This document shows, one piece after another, positions 16,026-41,952 of a DNA stretch of 64,000 nt. The stretch is from Patescibacteria group bacterium. Lineage in GTDB: Bacteria; Patescibacteriota; Patescibacteriia; Patescibacteriales; UBA12465. The stretch lies in contig JBAYIC010000001.1 in assembly GCA_041665845.1 (NCBI GenBank), positions 137,531-201,530 on the forward strand. Reading direction: 5' to 3'. Position 1 is the first letter of the stretch. Each line of letters begins with the position of its first letter. The notes under the pieces are model-generated. The model was given only the letters and a program-made list of their open reading frames with translations, was not told the DNA's origin and made no database searches. The position numbers and the translations under genes were made by a program.

Positions 16026-16967
16026 ATGTCCAGTCAGAAAGAAGTAAAAAAAATCAGAATTATTTTCATGGGAACGCCCGAATTTTCTTTGCCTGGGCTT
16101 AGAGCATTAATTAAAGATGAGTCTTTTGAAATTGTCGGCGTACTCACACAACCAGATAAACCCTTCGGCCGTAAACAAATATTAACTCCTCCATCCGTCA
16201 AAGTCCTAGCGCTTGAAAATAATTTAGAAATATTTCAACCAGATAAAATAAAAACTGAAATTGAAAATATTAAAAGTTTAGAGCCTGATTTGATCGTTGT
16301 CATTGCTTATGGCAAAATAATCCCTCAAGAGATATTAGATATACCAACATTCGGCTGTATTAACGTTCATGCCTCCCTGTTACCTAAATATCGCGGAGCG
16401 GCTTGTTTAAATGCACCCATTTTAAATGGCGATAAAGAAACTGGAGTAACAATTATGAAAATGGAGGCTGGTCTTGACACTGGTCCAATTTTACAACAAT
16501 CTAAAATGGAATTAAACGGACAAGAAACTTTAGGCGATGTTCATGATAGATTATCGGAACTTGGAGCAAAAGAGCTACCTAGTACTCTTCATGATTGGAT
16601 AGCGGGCAATATAGAAGCGCAAGTTCAAGATAATTTTCAGGCAAGTTTTGTAAAAACTTTGACTAAAGAAGATGGGCAAATTAACTGGGAAAAACAAGCA
16701 GAAGAAATTGAAAGGATGATTCGTGCTTTTACTCCTTGGCCGGGAGTTTGGACTGAGTTGAATGGAGAAATATTAAAAATAATTTCAGTCGAACATAAAA
16801 TCGCTAAGGTAAATAAAGTTAAAACTGGACAATTATTTTTAGATAACGGAAGACTGTTAATTCAATGTAGACAAAATGCTCTTGTTATATTAGAATTGCA
16901 ATTGGCCGGTAAAAGAGCGATGGACTCTAGTGAATTTATAAATGGATACAAAGACAAATTAAAATAA
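16026..16967 (+). CDS. fmt: Methionyl-tRNA formyltransferase
   Basis: FMGTPEFS, NVHASLLPKYRGAA and a C-terminal Fmt domain. Confidence 0.96.
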   Translation: MSSQKEVKKIRIIFMGTPEFSLPGLRALIKDESFEIVGVLTQPDKPFGRKQILTPPSVKVLALENNLEIFQPDKIKTEIENIKSLEPDLIVVIAYGKIIPQEILDIPTFGCINVHASLLPKYRGAACLNAPILNGDKETGVTIMKMEAGLDTGPILQQSKMELNGQETLGDVHDRLSELGAKELPSTLHDWIAGNIEAQVQDNFQASFVKTLTKEDGQINWEKQAEEIERMIRAFTPWPGVWTELNGEILKIISVEHKIAKVNKVKTGQLFLDNGRLLIQCRQNALVILELQLAGKRAMDSSEFINGYKDKLK

Positions 16968-16971
16968 AAAT

Positions 16972-17043
16972 GGTCTCTTCGTCTAACGGTTAGGACGCCA
17001 GGTTCTCATCCTGGTAACAGGGGTTCGATTCCCCTAGGGACTA
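16972..17043 (+). tRNA. tRNA-Glu (anticodon CTC), no encoded CCA
   Basis: Hand-folded cloverleaf. The acceptor stem is GGTCTCT/AGGGACT. The anticodon arm is CCAGG-TTCTCAT-CCTGG. The T arm is AGGGG-TTCGATT-CCCCT. Confidence 0.9.
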
Positions 17044-17048
17044 CTAAT

Positions 17049-17082
17049 AAAAATAGACTTAACGAATGTTGAGTCTATTTTT
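17049..17082 (+). terminator. Intrinsic terminator after tRNA-Glu
   Basis: AAAAATAGACT pairs with AGTCTATTTTT across a 12-nt loop. Confidence 0.7.
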
Positions 17083-17089
17083 ATTAATT

Positions 17090-17258
17090 TGGGCAAACTA
17101 GGAGAATCGAACAAGCGGCGAGCGAAATACGAGGATGAACGAAGCGAGTCCGAGTAATTGAGCGACGATAAGCGCGAGCTAGCGTAGCGCTTAGCGGCCG
17201 GTCTGGACAAGTGAGCTTTTCGGAAGAAAAGCGAGCGCGAAATTCCCCTAGGGACTAC
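17090..17258 (+). other. GC- and purine-rich structured block of unknown nature, ending in a duplicate of the tRNA-Glu 3' end. It is either a candidate ncRNA or a remnant of an integrated element.
   Basis: The block is markedly more GC-rich than its surroundings. It holds two perfect 7-bp hairpins: TAAGCGC...GCGCTTA and GCTTTTC-GGAA-GAAAAGC. Its left end, read on the minus strand, is GTTCGATTCTCCTAGTTTGCCCA, which looks like a tRNA T-loop/acceptor fragment. Its right end is ATTCCCCTAGGGACTAC. Confidence 0.4.
17242..17258 (+). repeat. 17-nt exact direct repeat of the tRNA-Glu 3' end (first copy at 17028-17044)
   Basis: ATTCCCCTAGGGACTAC occurs at both positions, 197 nt apart. Confidence 0.9.
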
Positions 17259-17264
17259 GAATTT

Positions 17265-17293
17265 AAAAGGACATGTTTGGTGCATGTCCTTTT
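17265..17293. terminator. Bidirectional intrinsic terminator
   Basis: GGACATG-TTTGGTG-CATGTCC hairpin flanked by an A-run and a T-run. Confidence 0.75.
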
Positions 17294-17315
17294 GTTTAAG
17301 TTGTTATTAAAAAAT

Positions 17316-17858
17316 TTATTTTTTCGCTTCGGATAATTCTCTTTGACGGTCGCTTAACCAATTATCCCAAGTAGCCAAATATTGAGGAAAATTCATTTTG
17401 TTTTCTACAATATGATTCAGCCATTTTTCAGCTGTTTGAATATCACTTTGAAGAGCATTCCTAAAACCTTTGGTATCAGTGAAGCCAAATTTTTCTTTTA
17501 GCTCGGCCTGTGCCTCCTCCTTAGTGCGATGTTCCATTTTTTCTAAGAATCCATCACTCTTTAAATTTTTATAGAGTTCAACGTCTTTTTGACGGTCACT
17601 TAACCAGGAATCCCAAGTGGATGCATATTGCGGGAAACTTTCTTTGTTTTCTACAATATATTTTAGCCATTCTTCAGCTAATTCAATTTTACCTTGTTGC
17701 AAGGCCAACTGAAAGTCTGAAGTTTTTCTCAGCCCGAATTTTTCAATCAATTCTTGCTGAGCTTCTTCTTTAGTTCTTTTCGTTTCCATTTTTACCTCCG
17801 GTTTTTGTTGATTTATAAAAGAATCTTCATTTATTGATTTATCCCCAAATAGTCCCAT
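17316..17858 (-). CDS. Hypothetical protein built from two tandem ~75-aa repeats
   Basis: Repeat 1 is KRTKEEAQQELIEKFG...AEEWLKYIVENKESFPQYASTWDSWLSDRQ. Repeat 2 is HRTKEEAQAELKEKFG...AEKWLNHIVENKMNFPQYLATWDNWLSDRQ. Confidence 0.75.
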   Translation of the reverse strand: MGLFGDKSINEDSFINQQKPEVKMETKRTKEEAQQELIEKFGLRKTSDFQLALQQGKIELAEEWLKYIVENKESFPQYASTWDSWLSDRQKDVELYKNLKSDGFLEKMEHRTKEEAQAELKEKFGFTDTKGFRNALQSDIQTAEKWLNHIVENKMNFPQYLATWDNWLSDRQRELSEAKK

Positions 17859-18007
17859 AGTTTTGTAATTTAGTTTATTTACTTAACTTATATTAACACT
17901 TAGCATAAACCCATAGTCTTAATTATATAACATTTTGCAATAAAAGTAACTGTTTTTTGACTTTCTACTCTTTATTGATTAGTATTTAGAGATAAACAAT
18001 ATAAAAT

Positions 18008-38769: not shown

Positions 38770-40059
38770 ATGTCCAATATTTTTATTTATGATGAATTTA
38801 ATCCGGAAGATGTCGCAATGATGCAAGCGCTTTATTCTAGAAGTCCAAAAAGTGTAACTGAACATGTTGAAAAAGTAAAACAAAGCGGTTCCGGAAAATT
38901 CATGGCAACATTTTACGTCGGCTATGGCCATGCTAGTATTGCTGACTGCGGTAGCACAACAATTTTTATTGAAAATATCAGTATTTTAGGAGACAAGGCT
39001 ATCCAGGATTGGCAATTATATAGCGGCCAGGAAACCAGCACTCGTTATATTGATATGGGAAAGCAAGAAATTGTTGATCCTTTAAATACGATTGAATCAA
39101 AAACCGTTCTTAATAACTGGATGAATTTTTATATAAATAACCAAGAAAAAATTCAACAATATTTAATGACAAAATATCCTCGCCAAGAAAGTGAGGATGA
39201 GGGCGTTTATATAAAGGCGATTAAAGCGCGCGGATTCGACGTGATGCGCGGATTTCTTCCGGCTGGCGTTACCACTCAACTTAGTTGGCATACCAATTTG
39301 CGCCAAGCTTGGGATCATTTAGTATTACTGCGCCATCATCCTTTACTTGAAGTCCGTCAAAACGCTGAAGTGATTCTGGAAAAATTAAAAGAAAAATATT
39401 CTCATAGCTTCTCTCATGTTTTAAATGAAGACCAAGAGAATTATCGAGCTCAAACAGTTGGAAAATATACCTACTTCTCGCCATCAGATTCAAATGAATT
39501 TTTGATGACAACAACTGTAAAAGAAGATGAATTAGCTAATTATCAAGAAATAATCGATACTCGCCCACCTCGAATCGGCTTACCAAATTTCTTGGGCGAT
39601 TTAGGAACTTTTACTTTTGATTTTCATTTAGATTTTGGTTCTTTCCGTGATATTCAACGTCATCGCAATGGTATTGGCCGCATGCCCCTTCTTACCATTG
39701 AACTAGGATTTGGAAACTGGTACTTAGAACAATTACCGGAAGATTTACGCACTGAGGCAATAAATTTAATTGCAGCGCAAAAAATATTGATTGCTAAATT
39801 GGAAACTACTCCGGAGATTAAACAATATTATATTGCTATTGGATTTAATGTCGCTTGTCATTTTACCTTTCCGTTACCGGCCGCTATTTATGTAATTGAA
39901 CTTCGTTCCAACAAAACTGTTCATCCATCGCTCCGCGGTATTGCCCATAAGATGTACCGAGCTGTAAAAACAAAATTTCCTAATTTAAAATTATATGCCG
40001 ATCTTGATCTTGATGATTGGGATGTAAGACGCGGCCTAGCTGATATTATAAAAAAGTAA
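38770..40059 (+). CDS. Long, divergent ThyX-like (FAD-dependent thymidylate synthase family) protein, apparently two fused ThyX-like halves
   Basis: The first half, YGHASIADCGSTTIFIENISILGDKAIQDWQLYSGQETSTRYI, is colinear with the ThyX core GHxSxxEH..F.I.giSR...Q..RHR..S..Q.SqRY but lacks RHR. The second half carries FRDIQRHRNG. The gene sits between dCMP deaminase and thymidylate kinase genes. Confidence 0.55.
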   Translation: MSNIFIYDEFNPEDVAMMQALYSRSPKSVTEHVEKVKQSGSGKFMATFYVGYGHASIADCGSTTIFIENISILGDKAIQDWQLYSGQETSTRYIDMGKQEIVDPLNTIESKTVLNNWMNFYINNQEKIQQYLMTKYPRQESEDEGVYIKAIKARGFDVMRGFLPAGVTTQLSWHTNLRQAWDHLVLLRHHPLLEVRQNAEVILEKLKEKYSHSFSHVLNEDQENYRAQTVGKYTYFSPSDSNEFLMTTTVKEDELANYQEIIDTRPPRIGLPNFLGDLGTFTFDFHLDFGSFRDIQRHRNGIGRMPLLTIELGFGNWYLEQLPEDLRTEAINLIAAQKILIAKLETTPEIKQYYIAIGFNVACHFTFPLPAAIYVIELRSNKTVHPSLRGIAHKMYRAVKTKFPNLKLYADLDLDDWDVRRGLADIIKK

Positions 40060-40620: not shown

Positions 40621-41952
40621 ATGGAAAATTATTCGGGAAAATTCATCGTAATTGACGGTACAGATGGAAGTGGAAAAACCACTCAGCTTAACTTACTCAA
40701 AGAAAAATTAGAATTTGAAGGTTATGCGGTTGAAGTTGCTGATTTTCCACAATACAATACTAAGTCCTCAGGATTAGTCGAAGAATATCTTTCCGGTAAA
40801 TACGGCCAAGCCGATGATGTTGATCCTTACAAAGCTTCAATCTTTTATGCAGTTGATCGTTTTGATGCGAGCGCGAGAATAAAAAAATGGCTCCAAAACG
40901 GAAAAATCGTTTTAGCTAATAGATACACTAGCGCAAGTTTGGGCCATCAAGGCTGTAAAATAGATAATCCCCTAGAAAGAAAAGTCTTTTTTAATTGGCT
41001 ATATGATTTAGAATATAAAATCTTTGAAATACCAAAACCGGATTTAACTATTGTTTTGCAAGTAGAACCGGAAATATCTTATGCACTCGCCCAAGAAAGG
41101 GTGCGCGAAGATTGGACGGGGAAAACTAATGATATTCATGAGAATAATTTTAATCATCTTAAGAAAGCGGAACAGACTTATTTAGATATAGCGAACACTA
41201 TCCCTGGTTTTAAATTAATAAAGTGCACTCATAACGGACAAATTTTAAGCAGAGAGTCAATTCATTTCTTGGTTTGGTTGGCCGCTAGCCAGTTAATCGT
41301 CCATCAAGTTAAAACTGGACATGGCTTTGAACAGATTGGTAATTTAATGGGTTCTAACGAACAAATATTAAAAAACCGCGATTTAATTTTTAATAATAGC
41401 ATTAATCCGCCTATTAATGCACCGATAATTAGTAGGGAAAATCAGCCTGAAGCAAGACCGGAAATAAGAACCGAACCAATATCTATTCCTGCTACGAACA
41501 TTATTCCTACTCCGCCCACACCAATATCAATAAAGTTAAAAGTGGAAAAGGTTTCTCCCGAAGCAAAGATTCCACAAAAGGCTCATACAGGCGACGCCGG
41601 TTACGACTTGTATGCTAATGATTATTATTCAATAACCGCTTATGGCCAAGCCTTGGTGCAAACTGGAATAAAAATGGCGATACCCGACGGACATGTTGGT
41701 TTGATTTGGGATAAAAGCGGATTAGCAAATGAAGGAATAACAACCATGGGTGGCGTAATAGACGCTAATTATCGCGGAGAAATAAAAGTAATTGTTAAAA
41801 ATTTAAGTGAGGATATTTTTAATATTGTTCCCGGTCAAAAAATAGCCCAAATTATTATTCAAAAAATAGCTAATTCTGAGCTAGAAGAAGAAAAAATAAC
41901 AGAAATCACCACTCGTCATGATTCCGGTTTTGGTAGCTCGGGGAAATTTTAA
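40621..41952 (+). CDS. Fusion of thymidylate kinase (N-terminal) and dUTP diphosphatase (C-terminal)
   Basis: The Tmk part has FIVIDGTDGSGKTTQ and DRY-like NRYTSAS. A Pro-rich linker follows. The Dut part has TGDAGYDLYA, GVIDANYRGEIKVIVKN, GQKIAQIII and the C-terminal GFGSSG. Confidence 0.9.
   Translation: MENYSGKFIVIDGTDGSGKTTQLNLLKEKLEFEGYAVEVADFPQYNTKSSGLVEEYLSGKYGQADDVDPYKASIFYAVDRFDASARIKKWLQNGKIVLANRYTSASLGHQGCKIDNPLERKVFFNWLYDLEYKIFEIPKPDLTIVLQVEPEISYALAQERVREDWTGKTNDIHENNFNHLKKAEQTYLDIANTIPGFKLIKCTHNGQILSRESIHFLVWLAASQLIVHQVKTGHGFEQIGNLMGSNEQILKNRDLIFNNSINPPINAPIISRENQPEARPEIRTEPISIPATNIIPTPPTPISIKLKVEKVSPEAKIPQKAHTGDAGYDLYANDYYSITAYGQALVQTGIKMAIPDGHVGLIWDKSGLANEGITTMGGVIDANYRGEIKVIVKNLSEDIFNIVPGQKIAQIIIQKIANSELEEEKITEITTRHDSGFGSSGKF

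Follow-up and report, generated by a model that had tools for sequence, protein, structure and literature searches.

The tRNA-Glu locus and its duplicated tail

We describe a compact, structured block that directly follows a tRNA-Glu(CTC) gene in a 64,000-nt stretch (hereafter the window) of a genome from the Patescibacteria (candidate phyla radiation, CPR), and that we interpret as one unit of a family of tRNA-associated insertion modules. The window has a GC content of 34% over its 64 kb, and the gene order at the locus is def, a VTT-domain gene, fmt (16026-16967) and tRNA-Glu(CTC) (coordinates of all features of the block are collected in Table 1). The first-pass annotation of this region had reported that the 3′ end of the tRNA gene, ATTCCCCTAGGGACTAC, recurs exactly, and the repeat is real: the two copies are the only ones in the window, the second lies 214 bp downstream of the first, and 0.08 matches with three or fewer mismatches would be expected there by chance. 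Its description of the intervening sequence also held. The segment between the copies has a GC content of 0.56-0.57 against 0.34 for the window (120-nt stretches that reach 0.53 GC occur at only four places in the window, of which the block is one), a hairpin with 19-nt arms lies between the tail copies, a terminator-like hairpin follows the block, and both of the 7-bp hairpins that it listed are present and correspond to helices P4 and P5 of the conserved structure set out below. By repeat search the block is single-copy within the window, and the other two tRNA genes of the window are followed by plain terminators.

The left edge of the block had been taken for the T-loop and acceptor 3′ fragment of a different tRNA, read on the minus strand; instead, CTAGGAGAATCGAAC is an inverted copy, matching at 14 of 15 positions, of the T-loop and T-stem of tRNA-Glu itself, and the supposed acceptor part, TTTGCCCA, is a non-conserved leader. 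Part of this edge (GGCAAAC.AGGAGAA) is kept as a shortened leader in a relative that has no block (L009; loci from other genomes and metagenomes are given by L numbers throughout). An 83-aa open reading frame (ORF) across the block on the minus strand was rejected as coding, being of low complexity and overridden by the covariation evidence. A scan of the window region against Rfam 15, at both gathering and permissive thresholds, returned the tRNA only, with no match to the block.

A conserved family with a covarying scaffold

Relatives were gathered through Fmt similarity. In a relative whose Fmt is 78% identical (L003, L004, L013), fmt and tRNA-Glu are followed by a different terminator and no block, and in a relative at 71% (L009, L010) the first hairpin and part of the leader are kept before the sequences diverge. 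The block is found at the same position in genomes at 63-68% Fmt identity (L015, L017, L018, L019, L023 and L029), with DNA identities of 80-88%, and at the same place in 6 of the 13 Falkowbacteria-like representative genomes that have enough sequence 3′ of the tRNA; each complete copy in these relatives closes with a second copy of its own genome's tRNA tail. The L019 copy is carried by CP066698.1. Besides a search for copies in related genomes, the first-pass annotation had proposed looking for longer elements at tRNA-Glu, Rfam matches and covariation, and it had considered the block a possible decayed remnant of an integrated element. Further copies are plentiful: a pattern scan of metagenomes returned at least 118 matching stretches (the pattern required a Glu-type core, and other tRNAs were thereby not sampled), and a covariance model built from nine copies identified at least 51 at E ≤ 1e-15, from about 45 genome and metagenome loci. 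The idea of a decayed remnant fared less well, the central scaffold of about 165 nt keeping its length, architecture and motifs across the genomes at 63-68% Fmt identity. Literature searches yielded no description of the element, and the family is conserved and, by the resources used, apparently undescribed.

The consensus fold consists of a closing helix (P1), a long-range helix (P2) that encloses P3 and P4, the single-stranded motif GGACAAG, a hairpin (P5) and the sequence GAGCGCGA(U)AA, which is joined to the tRNA tail. Among 49 distinct sequences, standard pairs occupy 90% of the cells of this model, as against 33-42% when partners are slid by 1-3 columns; changes on both sides are seen in 31 of the 43 pairs (26 of the 43 are compensatory according to RNAalifold), and the covariation score (0.486, compared with 0.176 in shuffles) was reached by 0 of 500 shuffles. 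Every pair of P2 and P3, and most pairs of P4, have changed on both sides, with 98% of cells paired in P2 and 89-91% in P3 and P4. The apparent weakness of P5 in the model-based alignment comes only from its variable length; when folded alone, it forms a hairpin of at least 5 bp in 39 of 41 distinct copies, using 31 different stems, and the symmetric GA/GA loop that flanks it is always present. Family members other than the window copy fold better than shuffled sequences (z = −3.2 and −3.8). The scaffold is a structured element that covaries strongly in P2-P5, and it has no match in Rfam 15. An excess of G·U over A·C pairs (118 versus 40) and unpaired columns that are 71% purine identify the tRNA-sense strand as the folding strand, the pair counts having no power to separate RNA from top-strand DNA.

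P1 carries the sequence of the adjacent tRNA

In P1, the 5′ end of the scaffold, an antisense copy of the T-loop and T-stem, is base-paired with the tRNA-tail copy at the 3′ end. The scaffold always ends in GCGA(U)AA, and the junction between GCGA(T)AA and tRNA nt 59 onward is constant across copies, the 3′ end being a copy of tRNA positions 59 to 74. Identical to the tRNA tail, the 3′ strand of P1 does not vary, and changes occur one-sidedly in the 5′ strand, with many U·G and G·U pairs; the TCGAAC motif is nearly invariant across copies. The 15-nt segment at the 5′ end spans T-loop position 58/59 of the intact target, to which it is complementary. In this helix the window copy shows slight degradation, in the form of an A·C mismatch.

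The core is identical to the resident tRNA tail in 19 of 23 cases, among them the variant tails of L023 (TCTCC...CTGC) and L029 (T66, for which A7 of the tRNA compensates). Both tRNA-Glu(CTC) and tRNA-Glu(TTC), which lie in different chromosomal contexts, have blocks behind them, and a divergent copy (75 bits; L133:7090-7269, + strand) lies downstream of tRNA-Cys(GCA). In this copy the antisense of the Cys T-arm, GGGAGTCGAAC, serves as the 5′ strand, and the Cys tail, joined at the same T-loop position, is copied as CTTCCACTCCAAC at the 3′ end; the predicted fold forms P1 from the two. The copy is the only non-Glu case seen with a scan that required a Glu-type core. At L158, where the core differs from the resident tail, we asked whether the unit had supplied a new tail and so created a chimeric tRNA: the tRNA is internally consistent and the test was uninformative, and the result mildly contradicts a strict model of a displaced native tail.

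The first-pass annotation had offered, as an alternative, a structured small RNA with a tRNA-like 3′ end. The structured, covarying element stands, and the likeness to a tRNA does not amount to mimicry: there is no acceptor stem, no 5′ partner was found for the GGGACUAC tail, and ARAGORN and Rfam call nothing there. The first part of the tRNA-like 3′ end is instead the 3′ strand of P1, and in place of the T-loop stands a scaffold of about 125 nt.

Units, junctions and cargo

The repeating unit measures about 214-222 bp, from ACTAC to ACTAC, and comprises a 42-nt long-stem hairpin, a leader of 10-14 nt and the scaffold of about 165 nt. Every block is preceded by ...ACTAC, supplied by a tRNA, by the core of another block or by an AT-rich junction motif, and the hairpin of about 42 nt comes directly after it; the hairpin is accordingly part of the module and not of the tRNA, and that of the window (H1) also occurs in L029 and L009. 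The first block starts 47-53 nt after the tRNA, and successive cores are spaced 212-222 bp apart. Two subtypes are distinguished by their leaders, subtype A carrying a TAnnAT-like hexamer 6-7 nt before P1 and subtype B a small covarying hairpin. In the window, a −10-like hexamer (ATTAAT, 17083-17088) sits just upstream of the leader and overlaps the end of the hairpin, and could serve as a promoter. The scaffold moves together with its upstream hairpin and leader (many pairs of copies are at least 0.9 identical in hairpin and leader, with scaffolds only about 0.6 identical), and the downstream flank is unlinked to it (Spearman 0.01). Identical units are found behind three distinct left-hand contexts, where the sequences part exactly at the end of ACTAC; a single array can hold different subtypes, and loci have exchanged hairpin modules.

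Units occur singly (as in the window), in tandem (L122, L148, L151, L167) or interleaved with accessory cassettes, and the arrays form islands between tRNA-Glu and tRNA-Lys. The longer elements sought at tRNA-Glu were thus found in other genomes, as arrays with cargo genes of accessory or defence-like character: Fic and CYTH genes in L163, glycosyltransferases in L170, an N6-methylase in L172 and a methyltransferase in L198. The last of these, a contig of 1,228 nt whose two ends share an exact direct repeat of 123 nt, contains one methyltransferase cassette, an AT-rich junction motif, a hairpin and a GC-rich scaffold; judged from its ends, it may represent either an excised circle of 1,105 bp or a (collapsed) tandem array.

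The AT-rich motif is a second kind of junction element. It spans about 70 nt (AAAATTTCCGCCCAYTTCTCAATTTCCCCAATAAT..C.T.AAAATTTTGAGAAATTTCAGACTTTAAGACTAC, with palindromes TCAAAATTTTGA and GAAATTTC), ends in ...TTTCAGACTTTAAGACTAC, is always followed by a hairpin, and resembles over its last 25 nt or so the end of the GC-rich scaffold together with the tRNA tail. The loci examined outside the window hold 21 matches by regular expression and 31 by profile (L104, L106, L130, L133, L141, L151, L163, L169, L170, L172, L175 (2004-2078), L183, L189, L198, L206 and L009/L010), and neither search found the motif in the window. A permissive Rfam scan of six array loci, covering both scaffold subtypes and the AT-rich motif, returned nothing relevant.

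The window itself carries a cassette next to its single unit. Positions 16969-17909 are collinear, at 83% identity, with L133 in its tRNA-Glu(TTC) context, where the downstream hairpin H2 and a 180-aa ORF (orf180) likewise stand side by side behind a block, this time that of another tRNA gene; the orf180 cassette also occurs alone in L175, after an AT-motif junction, starting inside the core. From its placement at two different tRNA-Glu genes and at the L175 junction, orf180 behaves as a mobile cassette. Homology of the cassette to L133 and L175 stops at about 17909, and the window is without the AT-rich motif that closes the cassette elsewhere; TTTTTTGACTTTCTACTC, at about 17955-17975, is a possible decayed trace of it that the profile search did not detect. 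A Pfam search with orf180 gave no match, and the protein consists of two repeats of about 80 aa (DNA repeats 17338-17450/17584-17696, 77% identical).

Empty and occupied sites

An insertion can be read from a comparison of L122 with L166. Through the tRNA and the first unit, as far as ...GGGACTAC, the two agree at 96% identity, and beyond that point they have nothing in common; after its single unit L166 continues with the same terminator and flank that directly follow tRNA-Glu in the block-less L021 and L014. L166 therefore differs from the empty site by exactly one unit, and its tRNA tail is present twice. Of the attL/attR footprint that had been suggested for the window, the part that survives is that the duplicated tail marks a precise insertion; the part that does not is the decayed element between the copies.

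Many metagenome contigs of relatives stop in or at tRNA-Glu (L002, L005-L008, L011, L012, L016, L020, L024), which suggests that co-existing strains differ directly downstream of the tRNA.

Integrase elements and searches for an enzyme

The same tRNA gene hosts classic integrative elements in relatives, with a tyrosine integrase, an HTH_17 (excisionase-like) protein, an AAA_25 replicase-like protein, restriction–modification or Mrr cargo and sometimes a small-terminase-like ORF, spanning at least 9 kb. In L217 such an element is bounded by a 46-nt exact tRNA repeat that starts in the anticodon arm and has neither block nor AT-rich motif at either end; the block units, by contrast, have a 16-17-nt repeat that starts at T-loop nt 58/59. 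With L213-L218 examined, the 46-nt repeats of L217 and the missing block and AT-rich motif rule out that the block is the decayed end of this clade's integrase element. This family of small elements is common in Patescibacteria (2,198 integrase homologues at E ≤ 1e-20), and its members here are L022, L213/L214, L215/L216 and L217/L218; L213/L214 and L217 adjoin an intact tRNA-Glu(CTC) beside fmt, L215/L216 only a tRNA 3′ fragment, and L213 comes from the same sample as the window.

Neither phmmer nor tblastn with the clade's tRNA-Glu integrase found anything in the block-bearing loci or the window. All-against-all clustering of 295 ORFs near blocks revealed no protein family that is consistently adjacent, and Pfam searches of recurrent and adjacent ORFs, and of the large ORFs of the window, returned only housekeeping or accessory genes. 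A scan of IMG/VR with two scaffold patterns and the AT-rich motif gave 77 matches, none of which remained as real after covariance-model screening, and no scaffold was found in annotated phage and plasmid collections; these scans gave no autonomous parent in viruses or plasmids.

Feature map of the window copy

Table 1. Features of the tRNA-Glu(CTC) locus and the adjoining block, in window coordinates.
Feature	Position	Strand	Details
tRNA-Glu(CTC)	16972-17044	+	ARAGORN; Rfam tRNA 60.3 bits; also 3′ of fmt in relatives
Core copy 1 (last 16-17 nt of tRNA-Glu)	17028-17044		T-loop nt 58/59 to the base after the discriminator
Hairpin H1	17045-17086	+	begins directly after ...ACTAC; arms 17045-17063/17068-17086, loop GAAT; inverted repeat 95% complementary
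Leader ATTTGGGCAAA	17087-17097	+	10-14-nt leaders in all copies
P1 5′ strand and UCGAAC motif, CTAGGAGAATCGAAC	17098-17112	+	antisense of tRNA 17023-17037 (14/15); pairs with 17238-17252, one A·C mismatch at 17103/17246
P2 with enclosed P3 and P4	17114-17202	+	P2 17114-17119 with 17197-17202; P3 17122-17163; P4 17166-17196 (TAAGCGC/GCGCTTA at 17170-17176/17187-17193)
Single-stranded motif GGACAAG	17205-17211	+	nearly invariant in 51 aligned copies
P5 hairpin GCTTTTC-GGAA-GAAAAGC and GA/GA loop	17213-17234	+	stem 17215-17232; symmetric internal loop 17213-17214 and 17233-17234
Scaffold end GCGCGAA and core copy 2, ATTCCCCTAGGGACTAC	17235-17258	+	core 17242-17258; P1 3′ strand 17238-17252; GACTAC unpaired tail
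Hairpin H2, terminator-like	17264-17294	+	terminator scan; first element of the next (orf180) cassette
orf180, 180-aa ORF with internal repeat	17316-17858	-	cargo of the cassette ~17259-17909

Elsewhere in the window, an apparent thymidylate kinase–dUTPase fusion of 443 aa (40621-41952, + strand) adjoins a long ThyX-like ORF of 429 aa (38770-40059, + strand).

Interpretation and alternatives

We propose that the block is a unit of a conserved, non-autonomous insertion module that targets the 3′ part of tRNA genes in Falkowbacteria-like CPR bacteria, a reading to which we would give somewhat better than even odds (a probability of roughly 0.55). The module is described as non-autonomous because no recurrent neighbouring protein and no recombinase were found. 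Through site-specific recombination at the tRNA-tail core that they share, units and cassettes would be inserted, lost or swapped, with catalysis by an enzyme whose gene lies elsewhere; the exact 17-nt repeat would be the duplicated core. The scaffold would most likely be a small RNA, transcribed from the AT-rich edge formed by hairpin and leader and stopping at the hairpin of the next cassette; as such a transcript must read through the core to reach that hairpin, the core would be recruited into the closing helix P1. Its role would probably lie in the targeting or maintenance of the module itself.

Several observations weigh against this proposal. No enzyme was identified for the module in the block loci or the window, and units could be gained and lost by homologous recombination between the direct repeats, with no dedicated recombinase. 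Cassettes also meet at AT-motif junctions that have no scaffold, which is therefore not needed at every junction. The 5′ strand of P1 is often imperfect (an A·C mismatch is present in the window and in about seven other copies), from which it follows that P1 pairing is not under strict selection, and the L158 core, which departs from its resident tRNA tail, is a clear exception. The window copy itself folds no better than shuffled sequence (z = −0.45 and −0.63), and the promoter-like hexamers sit in AT-rich sequence and could be due to chance. With P1 often imperfect and AT-motif junctions free of scaffold, a direct targeting role for the guide-like 15-nt segment is unproven. The further step, a new tRNA-programmable insertion system with the scaffold as its targeting RNA, strikes us as rather improbable. 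Under such a scheme, the 15-nt 5′ segment would read the intact tRNA gene in the manner of an intron's internal guide sequence or of a bridge- or omega-type guide, and an unlinked enzyme would be brought in by the scaffold; the tRNA would be restored on insertion, with a copy of its tail left behind, and a change in P1 would retarget the module, as in the tRNA-Cys copy.

Among the alternatives, we regard as unlikely, if the least unlikely of them, a small RNA of the chromosome that does not move and is tied to tRNA-Glu (for instance an RNA of the 3′ external spacer, or a decoy or regulator built on the tRNA tail), which would be transcribed with or just after the tRNA and would form arrays by tandem duplication. 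The constant orientation of the block, 47-53 nt after the tRNA and in its sense, would be expected of such an RNA, as would the strong covariation with the tRNA-sense strand folded, the terminator-like hairpins on the flanks, the match of the core to the resident tRNA variants of L023 and L029, and the complementarity to the T-arm. It accords poorly with a block that is present in some close relatives and absent from others, with further units well away from any tRNA, behind AT-motif junctions and amid cargo genes, and with mixed subtypes in one array and hairpin modules shuffled between loci; nor does it account for a precise pair of empty and occupied sites or for a module at three different tRNA genes. 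More doubtful again is that the fold acts in single-stranded DNA, as an attachment site in which P1 would recreate the duplex tRNA-gene core for a recombinase. Folded-strand attachment sites of this kind are represented by integron attC sites and by the attP hairpin of CTX phage, which is used by XerCD, and mini-hairpins of the GCGAAGC type are very stable in DNA. P1 does have the sequence of the double-stranded target segment, the arrays are without an integrase and conserved in structure, the junctions are precise, and the P3 of subtype A holds GCGAAGC/GCGGAGC-type mini-hairpins that resemble those very stable DNA hairpins. Five helices of conserved length, GNRA-type loops, tandem G·A loops and conserved purine-rich single strands nevertheless go far beyond the needs of known folded attachment sites, AT-motif junctions recombine, or at least exist, without such a fold, and no integron-type integrase or GTTRRRY core was found; on the counts of G·U and A·C pairs, RNA and top-strand DNA cannot be told apart.

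The remaining two explanations fare worst. A decayed attL/attR scar, left by an integrase-borne element or prophage at tRNA-Glu and the main reading of the first-pass annotation, would explain the direct repeat of the tRNA 3′ end, and tRNA-Glu is a real integration site, as the elements with integrase, excisionase-like and replicase-like genes in relatives attest. Those elements, however, have 46-nt exact tRNA repeats and neither block nor AT-rich motif at their ends, no integrase fragments were found, and conservation of length, sequence and structure with compensatory changes at about 45 loci is unlike a decaying remnant; the evidence contradicts this reading, and we consider it very improbable. 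A chance repeat with ordinary terminators in an intergenic spacer would be in keeping with a window copy that folds no better than shuffled sequence, and is refuted by the 0.08 matches expected and by at least 51 homologous copies with covariation.

Relation to known systems

Integrons and clusters of attC sites lacking integron integrases (CALINs) are made of small, often single-gene cassettes with structure-conserved sites, some cassettes having no ORF and some arrays no integrase. The present cassettes are likewise separated by structure-conserved sites, and the inverse-core and core ends of attC pair as do the two strands of P1, a resemblance only. There is, by contrast with integrons, no IntI near the module, where the upstream genes are fmt, the VTT-domain gene and def; there are no RYYYAAC/GTTRRRY cores, the junctions ending in ...ACTAC with paired ends CTAGGGGAAT/ATTCCCCTAG; the primary site is a tRNA tail, with the tRNA-sense strand favoured; and the five-helix scaffold with conserved loops differs from attC, a simple hairpin with a variable tip. 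The omega RNAs (reRNAs) that guide TnpB or IscB, encoded at the right end of IS200/IS605 elements, and the bridge RNAs of IS110 have an end-encoded scaffold of about 130-150 nt, followed by about 16 nt of flank or target sequence and a terminator. The module has a matching layout, its scaffold ending in GCGA(T)AA and being followed by 16 nt of tRNA tail and a hairpin, although 10 of these 16 nt are paired in P1; a separate 15-nt segment is complementary to the intact target. It differs in having no tnpB, tnpA, iscB or IS110-type gene near the units or in the window, no Rfam match to omega RNA or HEARO, a guide-like 3′ segment partly sequestered in P1 and, compared with IS110 bridge RNA, a target-complementary segment that forms a terminal helix rather than one of two internal loops, which in the bridge RNA carry the target and donor guides.

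Integrative mobile elements exploiting Xer recombination (IMEX), such as CTX phage at dif, are comparable in being non-autonomous, in forming tandem arrays at one site and in having a fold of about 150 nt that recreates the target duplex. The target of the module, however, is a tRNA tail and not dif, no filamentous-phage genes accompany it, its scaffold is far more elaborate, and nothing about it indicates a single-stranded DNA stage. The integrase elements of the clade (L022, L213, L217) share with it the same tRNA-Glu and direct repeats of the tRNA 3′ part, and are set apart by the longer (46-nt) repeat, their integrase genes, their size (at least 9 kb) and the lack of scaffold and AT-rich motif. 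Tycheposon-type and other additive islands stack accessory cargo at a tRNA, separated by partial tRNA copies, and with each new insertion the earlier ones are displaced deeper into the island (Hackl et al., bioRxiv 10.1101/2020.12.28.424599). Tycheposons have recombinases of the tyrosine or serine type, and partial tRNAs without further features mark their limits. The arrays described here are also stacked at tRNA genes, with partial tRNA copies between accessory cargo; unlike tycheposons, they have no recombinase within or nearby, their repeat is only 16-17 nt, and many junctions carry the covarying scaffold of about 165 nt or the conserved 70-nt AT-rich motif.

Three further candidates, a group I intron, a retron and a type III antitoxin, were rejected, as there are no model matches, no reverse transcriptase and no toxin partner and the size of the unit is wrong. 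For the group I intron, Rfam gave no match even at E = 10, and in place of a 3′ G and a U·G pair at the 5′ splice site the unit ends in A and the T-loop junction follows A. The antisense 15-mer across the junction may be likened to the internal guide sequence of an intron, only as an analogy. On the defining features of tycheposons, integrons, omega and bridge RNAs, and integrase-less elements that use host recombinases, the module belongs to none of these groups.

Implications for Patescibacteria

CPR bacteria have tiny genomes with few recognised mobile elements, and how they exchange accessory and defence genes is poorly understood. The locus described here reveals a recurrent, precisely bounded cassette system at tRNA genes, whose hallmark is a strongly covarying element of about 165 nt, absent from Rfam and with no recombinase next to it, in which the closing helix takes its sequence from the neighbouring tRNA; the module may also explain why assemblies break at tRNA-Glu in Patescibacteria. 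If the RNA does take part in targeting, it would offer a compact means of recognition for site-specific insertion, one that is naturally reprogrammable, and the unit of about 215 bp would represent a new class of RNA-guided (or fold-guided), non-autonomous, site-specific DNA insertion. Either way, the element provides a new RNA family and a marker (...ACTAC, hairpin and scaffold) for the limits of genomic islands in Patescibacteria.

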